A stretch of 35,721 nucleotides of DNA from a virus (Duplodnaviria; Heunggongvirae; Uroviricota; Caudoviricetes): the IMG/VR virus record IMGVR_UViG_2713896776_000006; one strand, given 5' to 3'. Below the pieces are notes generated by a model that did no database searches, had not been told where the DNA came from, and saw only the letters and a program-made list of their open reading frames with translations. Both the position numbers and the translations under genes were made by a program. Position 1 is the first letter of the stretch, and every line of letters begins with the position of its first letter. This document shows, one piece after another, positions 2,584 through 34,359 of the stretch.

Positions 2584-3080
2584 CAGTGATGACGCTTAAT
2601 CTCGTCGAAAAACAGCCAGCAGCTATGCGCCGGATAATTGGTAAGCATCTTGCCGTCCCTCGCTGGCAGGAGACATGCGATTATTATAATCAGATGATGG
2701 TACGCGAACGGCTAACGGTTTGCTTCCATGCGCAGTTAAAACAGCGTCACGCAACGATGCGTTTTGAAGAAATGAATGATGTCGAACGTGAACGACTGGT
2801 ATGTGCAATTGATGAATTGCGTGGGGCATTCTCAAAACGCCGTCAGGTTGGCGCAAGTGAGTATGCATATATTAGTTTTTTAACAGTCAGTCAGCGTCGT
2901 ACTTTATTTATGCATGCCGGATTGACTGAAAAAGAATTCAACCAGCCATACTGGCGAATTAATGAAGAATCATGTTACTGGCGTGATGCTTTATTCCGTG
3001 CATTACGTGAATTATTCAGCCTGTTTGAGTATGCACCGACAATTCTGACGTCGGTAAAACCAGAGCAATATCTGCATTAA
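2580..3080 (+). CDS. B: Replication protein B (helicase-loader-like)
   Basis: 166-aa ORF with GGAGGG SD upstream; same length and position as P2 gpB. Confidence 0.85.
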   Translation: MTVMTLNLVEKQPAAMRRIIGKHLAVPRWQETCDYYNQMMVRERLTVCFHAQLKQRHATMRFEEMNDVERERLVCAIDELRGAFSKRRQVGASEYAYISFLTVSQRRTLFMHAGLTEKEFNQPYWRINEESCYWRDALFRALRELFSLFEYAPTILTSVKPEQYLH

Positions 3081-3143
3081 GTAATTAACCAGAGTTTTTA
3101 ACGCACTTAATTGTGCGGGGCTTCTTTTTGCCTGGAGAAAGTC

Positions 3144-3368
3144 ATGCATACAGTTTCTGAAAATCAGTGCGGTAAATACGCATTACTGCTGCAACAGGCC
3201 AGAACCGAAGCACAGGCCGACGCAGCGACGCGCTTTTCTTCTCATCTTGACGCCATGATTCGCCACATCACAAAGGCGGAGTTATCCCGCGTGGAGATAG
3301 TCGAGCTGCTCAGTCAGGAGTCGGAAAAATTTCACAATATCGGATTGTCTCGCGGGGAGGTGCTTTGA
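3144..3368 (+). CDS. Early hypothetical protein (P2 orf80-like)
   Basis: ORF in early operon; start chosen at the ATG preceded by GGAGAAA. The six-frame track begins at 3111; start is uncertain. Confidence 0.45.
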
Positions 3369-3670
3369 TGTCCTGTTCTCGTTCAGTTGTATTACTGAAT
3401 AACGCCTTAAAAATCGCCGTTATGAGAAATGGCGATTTATCTCTTATTCAACTTGGTCTTGATAAAGAAAAACGCGAAATAACTGAGTCTGTTATCGCGA
3501 TTTATCAGAACGAATTAAATCTCCTGTCTGATGTGGTCAATTTACTTGTTAAACGCGCTGTATTTCACAAGCAAATCTCCTCCGTGGATGAACTGACGAA
3601 ATTAACGACAGAAATTGCCAGCTATTGCGCTGATGAATTTAAAAAACTTAACGACAAAAGGAGCTGGTAA
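3368..3670 (+). CDS. Early hypothetical protein (P2 orf81-like)
   Basis: 100-aa ORF from the first ATG, with GGGGAGG upstream; position conserved in P2 early operon. Confidence 0.5.
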   Translation: MSCSRSVVLLNNALKIAVMRNGDLSLIQLGLDKEKREITESVIAIYQNELNLLSDVVNLLVKRAVFHKQISSVDELTKLTTEIASYCADEFKKLNDKRSW

Positions 3671-3894
3671 TGCCGGACAACGTAGATTTTATTCAGGAAC
3701 AACAGGCTGAATTACTGGAGCGCCAGATTAACGCGGCAAGGGTAAAGCATTGCGGTGTTTCTGCGCTGGTTTGCGAAGAGTGTGACGCGCCAATACCTGC
3801 TGCCCGTCGTGCGGCTTATCCGTCAGCCACGCGTTGTGTTTCCTGCCAGTCAGTCTTTGAAGCAAAAAACAAACATTACCGGAGAACGTCATGA
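3670..3894 (+). CDS. TraR/DksA-family C4 zinc-finger protein (P2 orf82-like)
   Basis: 74-aa ORF with CxxC-N17-CxxC pattern (CEECDAPIPAARRAAYPSATRCVSC); GGAG SD upstream. Confidence 0.6.
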   Translation: MPDNVDFIQEQQAELLERQINAARVKHCGVSALVCEECDAPIPAARRAAYPSATRCVSCQSVFEAKNKHYRRTS

Positions 3895-4166: not shown

Positions 4167-6432
4167 AGCCTCCGGGCGTTTTGTCCCTCCGTCAGCATTT
4201 GCCGCAGGCACCGGTGAGACGTTTACCGGTGCTTATGCATGGAACGCGCCACGCGAGGCCGTCGGGCGCGAAAGACCCCTTACACGTGACGAGATGCGTC
4301 AGGTGCAAGGTGTTTTATCCACGATTAATCGCCTGCCTTACTTTTTGCGCTCGCTGTTTACTTCACGCTATGACTACATCCGGCGCAATAAAAGCCCGGT
4401 GCACGGGTTTTATTTCCTCACATCCACTTTTCAGCGCCGTTTATGGCCGCGTATTGAGCGCGTGAATCAGCGCCATGAAATGAACACCGACGCGTCGTTG
4501 CTGTTTCTGGCAGAGCGTGACCATTATGCGCGTCTGCCGGGGATGAATGACAAGGAGCTGAAAAAGTTTGCCGCCCGTATCTCATCGCAGCTTTTCATGA
4601 TGTATGAGGAACTCTGCGATGCATGGGTTGATGCACATGGCGAGAAAGAATCGCTGTTTACAGATGAGGCGCAGGCGCATCTGTATGGTCATGTTGCTGG
4701 CGCTGCACGTGCTTTCAATATTTCCCCTCTCTACTGGAAAAAATACCGTAAAGGACAGATGACCACGAGGCAGGCATATTCTGCCATTGCCCGTCTGTTT
4801 AACGATGAGTGGTGGACTCATCAGCTTAAAGGCCAGCGTATGCGCTGGCATGAGGCGTTACTGATTGCTGTCGGGGAGGTCAATAAAGACCGTTCTCCTT
4901 ATGCCAGTAAACATGCCATTCGTGATGTGCGTGCACGCCGCCAGGCAAATCTGGAATTTCTTAAATCGTGTGACCTCGAAAACAGGGAAACCGGCGAGCG
5001 CATCGACCTTATCAGTAAGGTGATGGGCAGTATTTCTAATCCTGAAATTCGCCGGATGGAGCTGATGAACACCATCGCCGGTATTGAGCGTTACGCCGCC
5101 GCAGAGGGTGATGTGGGGATGTTTATCACTCTGACCGCGCCGTCAAAGTATCACCCGACACGTCAGGTCGGAAAAGGCGAAAGTAAAACCGTCCAGCTAA
5201 ATCACGGCTGGAATGATGAGGCATTTAATCCAAAGGATGCGCAGCGTTATCTCTGCCGCATCTGGAGCCTGATGCGCACGGCATTCAAGGATAATGATTT
5301 ACAGGTCTACGGTTTGCGAGTCGTCGAGCCACACCACGACGGAACGCCGCACTGGCATATGATGCTTTTTTGTAATCCACGCCAGCGTAACCAGATTATC
5401 GAAATCATGCGTCGCTATGCGCTCAAAGAGGATGGTGACGAAAGAGGAGCCGCGCGAAACCGTTTTCAGGCAAAACACCTTAACCGGGGCGGTGCTGCGG
5501 GATATATCGCGAAATACATCTCAAAAAACATCGATGGCTATGCACTGGATGGTCAGCTCGATAATGATACCGGCAGGCCGCTGAAAGACACTGCCGCGGC
5601 TGTTACCGCATGGGCGTCAACGTGGCGCATTCCGCAATTTAAAACGGTTGGCCTGCCGACAATGGGGGCTTACCGTGAACTACGCAAATTGCCTCGCGGC
5701 GTCAGCATTGCTGATGAGTTTGACGAGCGCGTCGAGGCTGCACGCGCCGCTGCAGACAGTGGTGATTTTGCGTTGTATATCAGCGCGCAGGGCGGGGCAA
5801 ATGTCCCGCGCGATTGCCAGACTGTCAGGGTCGCCCGTAGCCCGTCGGATGACGTTAACGAGTACGAGGAAGAAGTCGAGAGAGTGGTCGGCATTTACGC
5901 GCCGCATCTCGGCGCGCGTCATATTCATATCACCAGAACGACGGACTGGCGCATTGTTCCGAAAGTGCCGGTCGTTGAGCCTTTGACTTTAAAAAGCGGC
6001 ATCGCCGCGCCTCGGAGTCCTGTCAATAACTGTGGAAAGCTCACCGGTGGTGATACTTCGTTACCGGCTCCCACACCTTCTGAACACGCCGCAGCAGTGC
6101 TTAATCTGGTTGATGACGGTGTTATCGAATGGAATGACACGGAGGTCGTGAGGGCGCTCAGGGGGGCATTAAAACACGACCTGAGAACACCAAATCGTCA
6201 GCAAAGAAACGGAAGCCCGTTAAAACTACATGAAATTGCACCATCGGCCAGACTGACCCGGTCGGAAAGAATGCAAATTACCCGTATCCGCGTTGACCTT
6301 GCTCAGAACGGTATCAGGCCGCAGCGATGGGAGCTTGAGGCGCTGGCGCGTGGCGCGACCGTAAATTATTACGGGAAATATTTCAATTATCAGGTCGCTG
6401 ATGAGTGGCCTGGATTTTTGTTACCCATTTGA
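4156..6432 (+). CDS. A: Replication initiation protein A (rolling-circle nickase)
   Basis: About 758 aa from the first in-frame ATG (a TTG at 4147 would give 761 aa, the P2 gpA length); position after orf83; large basic replication protein typical of P2 gpA. Start uncertain by about 3 codons. Confidence 0.88.
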   Translation: MAVKASGRFVPPSAFAAGTGETFTGAYAWNAPREAVGRERPLTRDEMRQVQGVLSTINRLPYFLRSLFTSRYDYIRRNKSPVHGFYFLTSTFQRRLWPRIERVNQRHEMNTDASLLFLAERDHYARLPGMNDKELKKFAARISSQLFMMYEELCDAWVDAHGEKESLFTDEAQAHLYGHVAGAARAFNISPLYWKKYRKGQMTTRQAYSAIARLFNDEWWTHQLKGQRMRWHEALLIAVGEVNKDRSPYASKHAIRDVRARRQANLEFLKSCDLENRETGERIDLISKVMGSISNPEIRRMELMNTIAGIERYAAAEGDVGMFITLTAPSKYHPTRQVGKGESKTVQLNHGWNDEAFNPKDAQRYLCRIWSLMRTAFKDNDLQVYGLRVVEPHHDGTPHWHMMLFCNPRQRNQIIEIMRRYALKEDGDERGAARNRFQAKHLNRGGAAGYIAKYISKNIDGYALDGQLDNDTGRPLKDTAAAVTAWASTWRIPQFKTVGLPTMGAYRELRKLPRGVSIADEFDERVEAARAAADSGDFALYISAQGGANVPRDCQTVRVARSPSDDVNEYEEEVERVVGIYAPHLGARHIHITRTTDWRIVPKVPVVEPLTLKSGIAAPRSPVNNCGKLTGGDTSLPAPTPSEHAAAVLNLVDDGVIEWNDTEVVRALRGALKHDLRTPNRQQRNGSPLKLHEIAPSARLTRSERMQITRIRVDLAQNGIRPQRWELEALARGATVNYYGKYFNYQVADEWPGFLLPI

Positions 6433-6690
6433 GTAAAAATGCAGCGTGATTTTATATGCCTTTGAATGGATTATGCGAAGCGCCTCTAAGGCAGATGAGG
6501 AGCAATAGCATGCTGAAGTAGAAGGCTAAATTGTATTGAATCGCTAGCATGTAATTTAAGGCAGCTATTTGATTCGAGTCATAAAAGAGCATCTATTTCG
6601 GCTAATAAAACCATTGCGAGTGACCTTTTGTCGAAGCATAATTCATCTCGAGCGAAGTCTTGCTAGTCTTTCATCGGAATGATGACAGGC

Positions 6691-6723
6691 GCAAAAAAAC
6701 CACCCTGGCAGGTGGTTTTTTTG
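6691..6723. terminator. Bidirectional rho-independent terminator (accacc-ctggca-ggtggt between A-run and T-run)
   Basis: Seen directly: A7 - 6-bp GC-rich stem - 6-nt loop - stem - T7. Lies downstream of A (plus strand) and of the small minus-strand ORF. Confidence 0.6.
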
Positions 6724-6734
6724 TTTGAAGCATA

Positions 6735-6848
6735 CTAAAGAATAATACTTACATGGATATTACTGACGTTTACTGACAAACCACTTGGACTACCATATGG
6801 ATAGCCAAAGAGGGCCAGAACGAGAATGCAGTAATAGCACTTCTTCAT
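6735..6848 (-). CDS. Candidate small protein (37 aa, MKKCYYCILVLALFGYPYGSPSGLSVNVSNIHVSIIL)
   Basis: Not in the ORF track (<60 aa). Found by manual reverse-complement translation: AGGAGG SD 4 nt upstream of ATG, and the ORF ends about 12 nt before the terminator hairpin. Compact promoter-SD-ORF-terminator layout. Function unknown. Confidence 0.25.
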   Translation of the reverse strand: MKKCYYCILVLALFGYPYGSPSGLSVNVSNIHVSIIL

Positions 6849-7420
6849 ATCTCCTCCTGTAAGCAGAGGGCAATTTCCGCCGATATATGCGCTTCTGAGG
6901 CGGAGTTACTATTTAGCGAAGTCTTGCCCTGAAATAATGCTCTGTTTAAACGCAAAGTGATCTGGCATATCACCGAACAGAGAGCCTGAACAACACAACA
7001 TATAGTATGTCGTTGTTTCTGGTTGCATTTTATGTTGTGTAATACTGGTTTTGCATCAAGGATGTTTGAGCTTTTTTTGATATAGCTCAAAGTAAAAAGC
7101 AGGGACTACGGATGATAAGGTATTGAAAGCAATGTAAATTTTTTAAAGTTATTGGTGGCTAAAAAATGCACAGTTTCAATATGGCGGACTTAAATAAGCA
7201 ATTAAAAAAGTCATAAATATCACTAAAATCATGGTGTTACGTTTTTTTTGTGGGAGCTGCGGTGACGCTTAAGTTGATTTGTCATTAAATAAGCCGTGCA
7301 TGCAACAAGTGAATGTTTTTGCATGCGTCGGGGATGCCCGTTCCAGCTGCTCGCGGTCAGAGCTGGTGCGGATCCATAGTATCTATGCAACTGCATTAAA
7401 ACCGCCACATGAAGCGGGCG

Positions 7421-7439
7421 GGCGAGGCGGGGAAAGCAC
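7421..7439. other. Putative cos site (19-nt cohesive-end sequence ggcgaggcggggaaagcac)
   Basis: GC-rich 19-mer matching my recollection of the P2 cohesive end; located between A and Q where P2 cos lies in the prophage map. Recollection only, not verified. Confidence 0.45.
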
Positions 7440-7499
7440 TGCGCGTTAAAGATTTTATTATGGCTATTGACTTGCTTTGTGTTCAGAAATGAACTAACT

Positions 7500-9974
7500 A
7501 TGAAATCCCACTTAATTTATATGATAGGTTTTATAATGGATATTAATTTTACAGAGTTGATTATTAGCAAGCAAACTATTGATTATGCTAAACTAGTTAC
7601 AAATATTTGTTCTGGAAAGGCAATGTTGTTTTTGGGGGCGGGTTTCTCTAAAGAAGCTACGAATATTAATGATACTAATCCTTCTTCTTCAATAGAGCTA
7701 TCTCATATATTATGTGGTCTTTGTTCAATACCTAAAAATGATAATCTACGCTTTTCTTCTGATTATTACTTAGCAAAAAACTCGTCATTAAAATTAATAG
7801 AACTATTAATTTATAATTATTCTATAAAAACAACATCGGAGAACCAAAATATAATCGCATCGCTACCATGGAAACGTTGTTACACAACTAATTATGACCG
7901 ATGTTTTGAGATCGCAGCTGAATCATCCGGTAATAAATTCGAAACTATAGATCTTGAGCATAAAACAAAGGAATATTATAAGCGCAAGAATTTATGTATT
8001 CATCTTAATGGTTCAATTAATAATATTTCTACTGAAACGCTTGATGATTCATTCAAACTTTCTGATTCATCTTATTCAAGCCCTGACTCTTTTACTGACT
8101 CTGAATGGTTCTATTATTTTAAAAGAGATTTAGATAGGTGTGGCGCGATCGTTTTTATCGGTTATTCAATGTATGATATTGAAATAAAAAAAATCCTTTC
8201 TACCTTACCTCAATTAAAAGAGAAAACATTTTTTGTAACTAGTCTCAATCCTGATATCGAATTAGAATTTACTCTAGAAAAATTCGGTACCGTTTTGCCT
8301 ATAGGTTTGAGTGGTTTTGCCAATAGAATAAGAGATAATATTACTTCAGTATCAGAAGAGCAGGAGTATAAGCTACAGTCACTTTTTCTTCATGATATAA
8401 CCAATGAATCAAGTTCTATTAGAGATGAAGAGGTTGAAAAAATGTTGATGTATGGTGATTTGGATGATCATCATATTGATAATTTTATACTTGGTAATAC
8501 TAAGGTACCGTTTTTAGTAAAAAGAAGTGAAATTGATAAAGCTGTTTCATTAATTGAACAATCAAAAAATGTAATTATTTATTCGGCGCTTGGAAACGGA
8601 AAAACCATCTTATTGAAAGAGCTAAGGAGTGTTTTATCCGTCGGTGGTTATGATGTTTATACAGTGGCCGATATAGATGGTGATTTTATATCAGATATTG
8701 ACTATATAGCACAATCATCCATGAAAAATATCATATTACTTGATGGGTATGAGAAGAATCTTGAATTAATGGAACATGTGGGCAGAGCTGCTTACGAAAA
8801 TGTACTAATACTTGCTACTGCCCGTGTTGCAGATCATGAATATCACAGAGATGATTTGGAGCGCATAAAATTCAAATATTCTGAAATAAATATTGATATG
8901 TTAGATGAGGTAGAGTTAAAAGATTTTTCAAAAATAATAGATAACTTAGGTCTTTGGGGAGATAATGCAGGGCTTAGTGTAGAGCAAAAGGTAAGATATT
9001 TAGCTAATGAGAATAACAGTCAATTCTCAATTGCATTGCTTACTCTTTTGGAGTCGCCGCAAATAAAAAATAAGATAAGTGATTTAATTACCGGGATTAA
9101 AAAGAGTAAGAGTCATGAAAACACAATTATTTCAATTTGTCTTTGTCAAATACTTGGCATTGAAACGAATCGAGGGATTATATCTGATCTTGCAGGCAAT
9201 GATTTGATTTATGATCCGGATTTTACTAATAACAGTGCGTTTAAGGCAATATTTAATTTCCATGGCGGTAGGATCATTAACGGGTCTAGTTTATTTTGCA
9301 TACATCTAATAAAAAATAATTTCACTCCTACTGTTATTATAGAGCGAATGCTTACTATTGCATCAAGGTTTAATCAATTAAACTCTAAGGATTATGAACA
9401 GGATAGAATATTTAAAGCTATGCTCAGGTTTTCTTTTGTTGAGCAGCTGCTTCCTGAAAGTATGAAAATATCAACGCTACAACGATATTATGAAAAGTTA
9501 AAAATTGAAGTTCCATGGCTAAATTCAAACCCACACTTCTGGTTGCAATACGCAATGTGTTTTATTGCTTACAAAAATTACCCAAAAGCACAACAGTATA
9601 TTGACCAGGCATATGCGTTAGCTGAAAAGCGAGCAAAATATCACACGAACAATATTGATACCCAGCAAGCAAAAATATATTTGCTTTCAAGCGAAAAGAT
9701 ACCAGATGGTAATATTGTATTCTCTAATTTCGAAAAGGCAAACAACCTTCTTAGTAATTTGGATGTGGATATTTACTCTCTGAGGCAGTTTTCGAGATAT
9801 AAAGATTTTCATTTGTCAAATTACAATAAGCTATCGAAGAGTAATAAAGTTAAATATATGGAAGCATGTAAACAGTCTTTAAATAAAATATCTGAATATG
9901 AAGGAGATGGCGGCGTAAGTCAATCATATGTTGCTAAAGTGATTGAAATATTAAAGCATATTACAAAGGTATAA
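7500..9974 (+). CDS. Candidate anti-phage defence protein: N-terminal SIR2-like (SIR2_2-type) NADase domain fused to a P-loop NTPase and a C-terminal helical domain
   Basis: Long uninterrupted ORF (824 aa from the first ATG; track ORF starts at 7467 with TTG). SIR2-family motifs in canonical order: LFLGAGFS, CYTTNYD, IHLNGS, VFIGYSMYD. Downstream a Walker A-like SALGNGKT, Walker B-like NIILLDGYE, then ILATAR. Strongly AT-rich relative to flanking phage genes. Located at the P2 tin/old variable locus between cos and Q. Confidence 0.7.
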   Translation: MKSHLIYMIGFIMDINFTELIISKQTIDYAKLVTNICSGKAMLFLGAGFSKEATNINDTNPSSSIELSHILCGLCSIPKNDNLRFSSDYYLAKNSSLKLIELLIYNYSIKTTSENQNIIASLPWKRCYTTNYDRCFEIAAESSGNKFETIDLEHKTKEYYKRKNLCIHLNGSINNISTETLDDSFKLSDSSYSSPDSFTDSEWFYYFKRDLDRCGAIVFIGYSMYDIEIKKILSTLPQLKEKTFFVTSLNPDIELEFTLEKFGTVLPIGLSGFANRIRDNITSVSEEQEYKLQSLFLHDITNESSSIRDEEVEKMLMYGDLDDHHIDNFILGNTKVPFLVKRSEIDKAVSLIEQSKNVIIYSALGNGKTILLKELRSVLSVGGYDVYTVADIDGDFISDIDYIAQSSMKNIILLDGYEKNLELMEHVGRAAYENVLILATARVADHEYHRDDLERIKFKYSEINIDMLDEVELKDFSKIIDNLGLWGDNAGLSVEQKVRYLANENNSQFSIALLTLLESPQIKNKISDLITGIKKSKSHENTIISICLCQILGIETNRGIISDLAGNDLIYDPDFTNNSAFKAIFNFHGGRIINGSSLFCIHLIKNNFTPTVIIERMLTIASRFNQLNSKDYEQDRIFKAMLRFSFVEQLLPESMKISTLQRYYEKLKIEVPWLNSNPHFWLQYAMCFIAYKNYPKAQQYIDQAYALAEKRAKYHTNNIDTQQAKIYLLSSEKIPDGNIVFSNFEKANNLLSNLDVDIYSLRQFSRYKDFHLSNYNKLSKSNKVKYMEACKQSLNKISEYEGDGGVSQSYVAKVIEILKHITKV

Positions 9975-10007: not shown

Positions 10008-11042
10008 CTAATAATCCTCATCGCTAAGTTTGTAATTTTTAAAACATATTACTGATTCTCCTACCCAATGATTGACCTCACTGAGCCGGTTTTGGAGTGG
10101 AGTAAGTTCATTTCGCACGAATACTTTTGCCACTTTCTCAATATCACCCAGTGACCCGACATTCTCCGGCTTGCCGCCCATCAACTGAAAGGGGACGCGG
10201 TGTGCGTCCAGCAGGTCTGCGGCGCTGGCTTTTTTGATATTAAAAAAATCGTCCTTCGTTGCCACTTCACTGAGCGGGATAATTTTGATGCCGTCGGCTT
10301 TCCCCTGTGGGGCATAGAGAAACAGATTTTTAAAGTTGTTGCGGCCTTTCGACTTGACCATGTTTTCGCGAAGCATTTCGATATCGTTGCGATCCTGCAC
10401 GGCATCGGTGACGTACATGATGTATCCGGCATGAGCGCCATTTTCGTAATACTTTCGGCGGAACAGCGTGGCCGACTCATTCAGCCAGGCAGAATTAAGG
10501 GCGCTGAGATATTCCGGCAGGCCGTACAGCTCCTGATTAATATCCGGCTCCAGCAGGTGAAACACGGAGCCGGGCGTGAAGGCTGTCGGCTCGTTGAAGG
10601 ACGGCACCCACCAGTAAACATCCTCTTCCACACCACGGCGGGTATATTTTGCCGGTGAGGTTTCCAGTCTGATGACCTTACCGGTGGTGCTGTAACGCTT
10701 TTCCAGAAACGCATTACCGAACACCAGAAAATCCAGTACAAAGCGGCTGAAATCCTGCTGAGAAAGCCACGGATGCGGGATAAATGTTGAGGCCAGAATA
10801 TTACGTTTGACGTAAATCGGTGAGCTGTGATGCACGGCAGCACGCAGGCTTTTTGCCAGACCGGTAAAGCTGACCGGTGGCTCATACCATCTGCCGTTAC
10901 TGATGCACTCGACGTAATCCAGAATGTCACGGCGGTCGAGTACCGGCACCGGCTCACCAAAGGTGAATGCCTCCATTTTCGGGGCGCTGGCGGTCATTGT
11001 TTTTGCCGCAGGTCGCGGTGTTTTCCCTTTTTTCTTGCTCAT
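10008..11042 (-). CDS. Q: Portal protein
   Basis: 344-aa ORF, first gene of leftward late operon, stop/start overlap with P; same length as P2 gpQ. Confidence 0.93.
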   Translation of the reverse strand: MSKKKGKTPRPAAKTMTASAPKMEAFTFGEPVPVLDRRDILDYVECISNGRWYEPPVSFTGLAKSLRAAVHHSSPIYVKRNILASTFIPHPWLSQQDFSRFVLDFLVFGNAFLEKRYSTTGKVIRLETSPAKYTRRGVEEDVYWWVPSFNEPTAFTPGSVFHLLEPDINQELYGLPEYLSALNSAWLNESATLFRRKYYENGAHAGYIMYVTDAVQDRNDIEMLRENMVKSKGRNNFKNLFLYAPQGKADGIKIIPLSEVATKDDFFNIKKASAADLLDAHRVPFQLMGGKPENVGSLGDIEKVAKVFVRNELTPLQNRLSEVNHWVGESVICFKNYKLSDEDY

Positions 11043-34188: not shown

Positions 34189-34215
34189 AAAAAATAAGCC
34201 CGTGTAAGGGAGATT
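34189..34215. repeat. attR core: 27-bp direct repeat identical to 478..504
   Basis: Exact identity with the left copy; overlaps the 3' terminator of the sRNA gene on the minus strand. Confidence 0.8.
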
Positions 34216-34275
34216 ACACAGGCTAAGGAGGTGGTTCCTGGTACAGCTAGCATTTTATGGGTTATGTTTTTCAGC
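34189..34275 (-). ncRNA. cyaR: CyaR (RyeE) Hfq-dependent sRNA
   Basis: Reverse complement reads gctgaaaaacataacccataaaatgctagctgtaccaggaaccacctccttagcctgtgtaatctcccttacacgggcttatttttt, which matches my recollection of E. coli CyaR, including the terminal hairpin and U-tract. It lies between yegQ and P2-like prophage DNA as in E. coli K-12. Recollection only, not alignment-verified. Confidence 0.6.
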
Positions 34276-34359
34276 GAAACGGATGATAACCTTAATAAAT
34301 GCAGCTGTATGTGATCGGTTTCTAAGAATTTTCCATCCGGGAAAAATAATCGAAATTAA

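Follow-up and report, generated by a model that had tools for sequence, protein, structure and literature searches.

A candidate type I toxin-antitoxin-like cassette with a convergent small RNA in a P2-like prophage of Escherichia coli and on IncF plasmids

We asked whether a 37-codon minus-strand open reading frame (ORF), lying in an apparently empty intergenic stretch of a P2-like prophage, is a gene, and, if it is, what kind of gene and under what control. The window (IMG/VR record IMGVR_UViG_2713896776_000006; the whole 35,721-nt stretch of DNA analysed) is a P2-like prophage of Escherichia coli, and the intergenic stretch studied is 99.9% identical to that of several complete E. coli chromosomes. 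An earlier reading of the sequence alone (the original prediction) had tentatively likened the layout of the ORF to that of type I toxin loci. This likeness is now supported by selection on the coding frame, a predicted convergent small RNA (sRNA) that covaries with the message, a structured leader, and a masked Shine-Dalgarno (SD) sequence. Together these elements form a self-contained cassette of ~580 bp (window 6560-7140), and it is likely, judging from the comparisons below, that the cassette represents a new family of type I toxin-antitoxin-like modules.

The 37-codon frame and its product

The ORF and its ribosome-binding signal are placed as follows:
6735-6848, minus strand: 37-codon ORF plus stop, candidate toxin or small membrane protein (MKKCYYCILVLALFGYPYGSPSGLSVNVSNIHVSIIL; ATG at 6848, TAG at 6737-6735)
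6853-6858, minus strand: SD sequence AGGAGG, with AGAT (4 nt) between it and the ATG

Both the translation and the coordinates read by hand in the original prediction (AGGAGG-AGAT-ATG; 6848 to 6735) were confirmed, and the stop codon, thought to end about 12 nt before a terminator hairpin, lies 11 nt from the perfect inverted repeat of that terminator. By itself, an SD-preceded frame of 37 codons could be due to chance. Cassette copies were therefore compared over a range of 60-95% DNA identity, and the ORF is kept down to about 60%. All 19 distinct module variants tabulated (from P2-like prophages, Klebsiella and Salmonella IncF plasmids, and metagenomes) have the same frame in the same place with the same SD and terminator, at a length of 37 codons (39 in one clade). 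Frame and length are kept in 11 distinct peptide variants, including MNRLCLCILVLTLFGYPVGSQSGWSVNVSHINVNISL (Klebsiella plasmids), MKRLSYCIILLTLLGYPLGSQSGWSVDISNISVSIVM, and MDRRDCMCLFILTLISHLITGQESWMVYLNHISLTVQFY (Salmonella plasmid), and a GGAGG, GGUGG or GGAGA motif occupies the SD position in every variant, at fixed spacing from the ATG. Ratios of non-synonymous to synonymous substitution rates (Nei-Gojobori dN/dS) were 0.12-0.41 in 15 of 15 pairs among six variants, with substitutions concentrated at third codon positions and a significant synonymous excess (Fisher p = 0.0002-0.02). Indels are present in the aligned non-coding flanks and there are none in the ORF. Because frame, length, SD and terminator are retained, dN/dS is low, and synonymous changes are in excess, these comparisons argue that the ORF is no chance occurrence and is a protein-coding gene under purifying selection. 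The conservation of the frame, suggested at the outset as a way to check the ORF, thus speaks in its favour.

The encoded variants have a basic N-terminus, a hydrophobic core of 13-15 residues, a Gly/Ser-rich turn, and an uncharged C-terminal half in which hydrophobic and polar residues alternate. The turn is followed by a conserved Trp (Leu in the prophage form). Grand average of hydropathy (GRAVY) values for the 37-amino-acid peptide are 0.5-0.9, the last 12 residues include none or one that is charged in nine of nine variants scored, and no PXXXG motif is present. This pattern is kept at about 20% identity between classes A and B. Scans of four peptide variants against Pfam, NCBIfam, PHROGs and PADLOC, together with a PDB profile search, returned nothing significant, with zero NCBIfam or Pfam matches at E<=10. 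The product is a predicted small membrane-directed peptide and a candidate toxin.

The ORF has almost never been called as a gene. A padded-query protein search found only two entries among 5.8 billion protein clusters, RefSeq has no annotation in the cassette stretch in any of the E. coli records listed, and the sole phage record that calls the ORF (as a hypothetical protein) is that of Salmonella phage MET_P1_103_31. This scarcity, along with a leader that is clearly under selection for RNA structure (described below), would suit a minus-strand transcript that acts as a structured non-coding RNA and carries the 37-codon ORF only incidentally. We regard such an RNA as very improbable: the low dN/dS, the third-position excess, and the difference between an indel-free frame and indel-bearing flanks all oppose it, as do the fixed SD-ATG spacing and a peptide pattern that outlasts most of the sequence identity between classes A and B. 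An upstream ORF (uORF) in the leader (MPDHFAFKQ...) behaves differently from the 37-codon ORF and shows how conservation without coding appears at this locus. All codon positions of the uORF are conserved, and compensatory RNA changes replace it in one clade (L040), so its conservation is at the RNA level and we rejected it as coding sequence.

Two other reading frames were noted nearby. In prophage copies of one type (e.g., L021, 9844-10268), the stop codon upstream of the ATG is lost, which creates a 77-amino-acid frame that starts at a leader ATG and contains the 37-amino-acid peptide; the internal SD and ATG are kept. A hydrophobic, toxin-like-looking ORF of 46 amino acids just past the terminator (6452-6592, minus strand) is probably spurious, because it is not conserved in related prophages.

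A convergent small RNA and a structured leader

The original prediction had overlooked a partner of the ORF: a convergent sRNA of ~78 nt, encoded on the plus strand and predicted to silence it. The elements concerned are:
6614-6642, plus strand: predicted sigma-70 sRNA promoter (-35 TTGCGA at 6614-6619, 17-nt spacer, -10 CATAAT at 6637-6642)
6649-6727, plus strand: predicted ~78-nt sRNA, candidate antitoxin (single-stranded 5' seed, variable hairpin at ~6666-6690, terminator hairpin and U-run)
6651-6664, plus strand: sRNA seed (AGCGAAGTCTTGC plus T), a direct repeat of the leader site
6692-6723, both strands: bidirectional intrinsic terminator common to sRNA and mRNA (perfect 13-nt inverted repeat 6692-6704 / 6711-6723, 6-nt loop)
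6915-6928, minus strand: sRNA target site in the mRNA leader (GGCAAGACUUCGCU), 67-80 nt upstream of the ATG

A promoter scan scored the sRNA promoter as a 9/12 consensus match, with an A/T-rich TAATAAA block just upstream. In copies that are 60-73% identical overall, its TTGCG and GCATAAT boxes are invariant and the spacer between them is divergent. The seed lies 9 nt past this promoter-like site and ~30 nt before the bidirectional terminator. The predicted sRNA has a minimum free energy of -31.9 kcal/mol (z = -4.1 versus shuffles), and the consensus fold of 15 variants leaves the seed unpaired, shows compensatory changes in the middle hairpin, and has an invariant terminator. At the gathering threshold, Rfam matched only CyaR in the whole window, outside the cassette, and in E-value mode it gave only sub-threshold, terminator-driven matches (RNAI, Phe leader) over 6400-7480.

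The terminator reads A7-CCACC...GGTGG-T7 on either strand, and with A- and T-runs on both sides of the inverted repeat it is a bidirectional intrinsic terminator. Its bidirectional nature had been recognised correctly from the sequence, and the extent given for it (6698 to 6716) covered only the core of 6692-6723. A simple terminator scan did not list it, because its A/T runs belong to the stem. The predicted 3' ends of sRNA and mRNA overlap there and are fully complementary over ~34 nt (3'-end duplex, -58.5 kcal/mol). Including the loop, the terminator is 100% identical in BLAST-retrieved copies that are otherwise 60-73% identical, so more than termination seems to constrain it, perhaps a kissing-loop contact like that of the par system. 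The sRNA terminator loop, CUGGCA, contains a YUNR-like CUGG. One further locus (L030) was rejected as a homologous cassette, as the terminator is all it has in common with the others and it looks like a ColE1-type origin.

The link between the two RNAs is a 13-nt exact direct repeat, AGCGAAGTCTTGC, found at 6651-6663 and 6915-6927 (spacing 264 nt), with no third copy in the window. Since the mRNA is read from the opposite strand, a direct repeat in the DNA makes sRNA and mRNA complementary. Over 12 distinct sRNA/target pairs, 95% of positions in a 17-bp duplex are paired. Four positions have changed on both sides: three in L040, L042, L045 and L060, where GAGCGAAGTCTTGCC has become GAGCAAAGCCTTACC in both copies, and a fourth (C to T in both copies) in L067. 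The covariation score was reached by none of 500 shuffles, and slid-register controls were 24-46% paired. One-sided differences in the core are always T in the sRNA copy against C in the leader copy, i.e., sRNA-U:mRNA-G wobble pairs, the expected intermediate of compensatory evolution. As the reverse orientation would make each of them a mismatch, these wobble-only changes place the sRNA on the plus strand and the mRNA on the minus strand. A global prediction was less discriminating: when the sRNA 5' half was run against the mRNA in RNAduplex, 16 of 500 shuffles scored equally, and long looped duplexes dominated. The seed variants, classes A and B, may each define a specificity group of their own.

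Could the repeats instead be elements of the DNA itself, such as binding sites of one protein or footprints of a duplication or insertion, with no pairing between RNAs? Identical direct repeats around a 264-bp segment can arise by duplication, and a single binding protein or gene conversion could make two DNA copies covary. We consider this explanation extremely unlikely. It leaves unexplained why the core differences are confined to T in the sRNA copy and C in the leader copy, which is U:G in the proposed orientation, and why one copy coincides with the very 5' end of a promoter-to-terminator unit and the other falls in an unpaired stretch between covarying hairpins. Moreover, it is a gene and a terminator that lie between the repeats, with no mobile-element body.

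The leader of the predicted mRNA has the following features:
7027-7067, minus strand: predicted weak mRNA promoter (-10 TAAAAT at 7032-7027 and -35-like TGCAAA at 7055-7050, in the invariant box AAACATCCTTGATGCAAA)
6994-7020, minus strand: predicted mRNA 5' end (~7020) with a 5'-terminal hairpin, from the alignment and a centroid fold
6940-6982, minus strand: two-tier hairpin CUCUGUU..GGUGAU...AUCAC..AACAGAG, strongly conserved
6876-6904, minus strand: hairpin UCCGCC...GGCGGA in the interval from sRNA target to SD, its 5' arm holding a distal anti-SD

The mRNA promoter was assigned from conserved boxes and is accordingly a prediction. TA[AG]AATG is present in 36 of 36 unique module sequences, and the predicted start is 7 nt past the TA[AG]AAT box; an alternative promoter has a -35 of TTGAGC (7090-7085) and a -10 of AAACAT (7067-7062). 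From the predicted start near 7020, the mRNA would be ~325 nt long with a leader that is probably ~172 nt, longer than the roughly 100 nt previously estimated. A perfect 10-nt inverted repeat (6993-7002 / 7031-7040) covers both the predicted -10 box and the predicted start, and might serve as an operator or, if transcription starts from the alternative promoter (-10 AAACAT), as part of a longer 5' hairpin. Inspection of the mRNA promoter by eye did not reveal a conserved CTG-N10-CAG motif of a LexA box.

Selection for structure is evident along the leader. Helices 1 and 2 of the two-tier hairpin are 94-97% paired, with two-sided changes in 7 of 13 pairs, and the G-U pairs of this hairpin are compatible with the minus-strand RNA alone. 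Across the whole leader in 16 variants, 18 pairs are 93% paired and 10 of them have two-sided changes, a result that none of 500 shuffles matched (slid registers, 37-54% paired). The consensus fold consists of the two-tier hairpin and an anti-SD/SD helix. In the hairpin at 6876-6904, compensatory variants occur as UCCACC/GGUGGA (L021) and UCCUUCAG/CUGAAGGA (L026). In 15 of 16 cases, folding the sequences one by one places the SD in a helix with a nearby CCUC-type anti-SD, the predicted partners being upstream CCUCU (6869-6865) or CUCC (6905-6902). The 5'-terminal hairpin is kept in position and not in sequence, with L040 having AGCCCCUACAGGUAGGGGCU at that place.

Proposed mode of action

Type I toxins are generally defined as hydrophobic or membrane proteins of ~20-60 amino acids encoded on mRNAs of 150-400 nt (PMC8594479). 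The cassette has a peptide of 37 amino acids on a predicted ~325-nt mRNA, a predicted locus-encoded antisense RNA with 13-17 nt of complementarity to that mRNA (by comparison of sequences), and a structured message with SD/anti-SD sequestration and a terminator stem-loop. We infer the type I toxin-antitoxin label from this combination; it is strongly supported as an interpretation, as distinct from a demonstrated fact.

Under this label, the weak promoter near 7030 would produce a minus-strand mRNA that is translationally closed, its SD masked by the intramolecular anti-SD. The stronger promoter at 6614-6642 would drive the convergent, more strongly expressed sRNA, which would end at the same terminator. 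The complementary terminator hairpins might make first contact (34-nt 3' overlap; sRNA loop CUGGCA), and the 5' end of the sRNA would pair with 13-17 nt of the leader, 67-80 nt upstream of the AUG. Such pairing might block activation or a standby site, or recruit RNase III, leaving the message untranslated and/or cleaved. If the cassette or its transcription were lost, the sRNA would decay first, the peptide would be made, and the membrane would be damaged, with stabilisation of the prophage or plasmid (addiction) or abortive infection as the outcome.

Several observations weigh against this interpretation. The mRNA promoter is weak and a consensus scan did not detect it. The hydrophobic core is short (13-15 residues), and classical pore-forming type I toxins exceed the peptide in hydrophobicity. 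A single-sequence AlphaFold model of two helices has low confidence (predicted local distance difference test, pLDDT, 70). Few lineages supply the two-sided seed changes (one clade accounts for three positions and another for the fourth), and some DNA-level process could in principle keep the two repeats identical. Because the search patterns behind many homologs prescribed the terminator and the sRNA -10 box, the invariance of both is partly by construction; the lineages retrieved without this bias by BLAST (the window type, L004/L039, and L040) have the same pairing pattern. Finally, the cassette is absent from the full sequence of plasmid pKPN3 of Klebsiella pneumoniae MGH 78578, a strain with differential RNA sequencing (dRNA-seq) and RNA interaction by ligation and sequencing (RIL-seq) data; among the plasmids of that strain, the check covered pKPN3.

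The short core, which resembles a signal sequence, and the modest hydrophobicity of the peptide would also be in keeping with a small membrane protein and an sRNA regulator that are both real, the protein being a non-toxic accessory peptide (a modulator of a membrane complex or an exclusion factor) whose level the sRNA tunes. TimP, a related case, allows growth at native expression (PMC7667032). We think this unlikely, though deserving of weight: a structured leader, a masked SD, an antisense RNA, a shared terminator, and a weak mRNA promoter facing a better sRNA promoter are typical of genes that must stay off, and the two-gene unit moves among plasmids and prophages in the manner of addiction modules. 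A toxin held in check by the sRNA is the reading we prefer.

Distribution and relation to known systems

The cassette lies inside a 1-kb "empty" stretch with a gene for a P2 gpA-type replication endonuclease on one side (end at 6432; the syntenic gene is annotated "replication endonuclease" in related records) and a cargo gene encoding 835 amino acids on the other. From 6433 to ~7210, sequence is kept at 91-99% identity in ~152 of 5426 complete E. coli genomes, in a "Peduovirus P2" record, and in 31 P2-like contigs of IMG/VR, and the cargo downstream varies among the prophages that share it. Diverged copies occur on 416 PLSDB plasmids, 395 of them from Klebsiella and 352 of conjugative IncF types, and further diverged copies are found on Salmonella IncF plasmids and metagenome contigs. 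Carriers include E. coli E24377A (cassette at NC_009801 1006578-1007591), P2 of the NC_070905 type, and Klebsiella strains with plasmids resembling NZ_CP026752. A spread over plasmids and prophages with different neighbouring cargo is the distribution expected of an addiction or defence module, and addiction and abortive infection would each be consistent with a place bordering the P2 cargo hotspot and with carriage by conjugative plasmids. Searches of literature text gave no match to the peptide or repeat strings, and the "Pas sRNA" of a preprint proved unrelated to the cassette sRNA. A 19-mer from the leader had one match among genome contigs, in Collimonas, presumably by chance.

The closest counterpart in architecture is par of pAD1 from Enterococcus faecalis: its promoters converge on one bidirectional terminator used by both RNAs, its direct repeats are read in opposite directions, and a stem sequesters the SD (PMC7472228). 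With par (Fst/RNA I-RNA II) and its Firmicute relatives, including SprA1/SprA1as, the cassette shares convergent RNAs, a shared terminator with complementary 3' hairpins, and an intramolecular SD mask (PMC7472228; PMC8594479); its terminator is directly visible in the sequence and its mRNA promoter is predicted from conserved boxes. However, par has two repeats (DRa/DRb) over the initiation region, whereas the cassette has one, 67-80 nt upstream of the AUG, and the peptide lacks both the charged C-terminal tail and the PXXXG in the helix that form the Fst/Ldr signature (PMC7472228). The hosts also differ, those of the cassette being Enterobacteriaceae. In T1TAdb, a 3'-overlapping organisation is listed only for Gram-positive families (PMC8594479).

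In its targeting, the cassette resembles a different set of systems. As in zorO-orzO of E. coli O157:H7, tisB/istR-1, shoB/ohsC and dinQ/agrB, it is the extreme 5' end of a short sRNA that pairs in a long 5' untranslated region (5'UTR), far from the ribosome-binding site. The 5' end of OrzO pairs 73-91 nt upstream of the zorO start codon, and this pairing recruits RNase III (PMC3919570). Sequence variants in the pairing region that could set specificity are a further feature in common with zorO-orzO (PMC3919570). With timP-timR (the ryfA locus of Salmonella and E. coli), the cassette shares a peptide of ~38 amino acids with a hydrophobic, signal-sequence-like N-terminal part, and repression by an adjacent sRNA that pairs with the 5'UTR (PMC7667032). 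In Zor/Orz, TisB/IstR-1, ShoB/OhsC, DinQ/AgrB and TimP/TimR, however, the sRNA gene is 5' of the toxin gene, divergent and non-overlapping (PMC8594479), whereas that of the cassette is 3', convergent, and overlapping at the terminator. TimR is thus divergent and upstream, and timPR resides in chromosomal core DNA rather than on prophages or plasmids. No homology to any of these five systems was found with NCBIfam and Pfam at E<=10 or Rfam at threshold; timP RNA is Rfam family RF00126, and the cassette region has no Rfam match at threshold. Hok/Sok loci combine a peptide of the Hok family with a leader ORF that overlaps its gene (mok) and an antisense RNA wholly within the mRNA 5' region. Here there is no match to a Hok model, the sole leader ORF shows no coding-type conservation, and the sRNA lies outside the mRNA 5' region.

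Taken with the preferred toxin-antitoxin reading, these comparisons raise a more specific proposal, for and against which we see the balance as about equal: that the toxin is unrelated to known ones, that the architecture is of the par/Fst type so far catalogued only in Gram-positives, and that the whole is an unannotated addiction or abortive-infection cassette of P2-like prophages and epidemic Klebsiella IncF resistance plasmids.

Two further contexts of the cassette were noted. On the Klebsiella-type plasmid pJ53-KPC_Vir (L004; NZ_CP157326), the cassette (~2950-3370) and an annotated dinQ type I toxin gene (4346-4483) are ~1 kb apart, so that two type I-like loci are clustered between insertion sequence (IS) elements. 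A metagenome contig (L064; Ga0268256_1001162) has two cassettes, at 3354-3778 and 6276-6698, separated by 2.9 kb; the two differ in seed variant and in peptide, and they recall duplicated type I loci like zorO/zorP.

Beyond the cassette, the plus-strand ORF at 7467-9974 (835 amino acids) matches PADLOC models of ThsA/STALD (SIR2-like) over its N-terminal ~210 amino acids (E = 3e-12). The match makes it a candidate for an anti-phage defence gene among the cargo of the P2 hotspot that separates gpA from the portal gene (10008-11042, minus strand), and its position is occupied differently in related prophages, e.g., by an AAA ATPase in E24377A. The ~180 bp at 7269-7445 are far more common than the cassette: 2128 E. 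coli genomes contain them, as do P2/186-like phages from Yersinia, Klebsiella and Salmonella, in many cases close to the right genome end. They may mark the boundary of the cargo hotspot as a conserved element that is regulatory or cos-proximal. The prophage appears to adjoin cyaR, because the CyaR sRNA (34192-34277, minus strand; Rfam RF00112, 100.7 bits) lies ~100 nt past the last listed phage-like ORFs (~34087).

Genes of fewer than 50 codons and their RNA partners escape standard annotation, which this cassette illustrates. It is easily cloned at ~580 bp, and its natural covariants are ready-made compensatory mutants. If confirmed, it would extend the two dozen type I families known by one more toxin family with a new regulatory layout, and the par-type design would not be limited to Firmicutes. 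It would also mean that ~400 sequenced conjugative plasmids of Klebsiella carry an unannotated stability or defence determinant, and that ~3% of complete E. coli genomes have the same determinant bordering the defence hotspot of P2 prophages.

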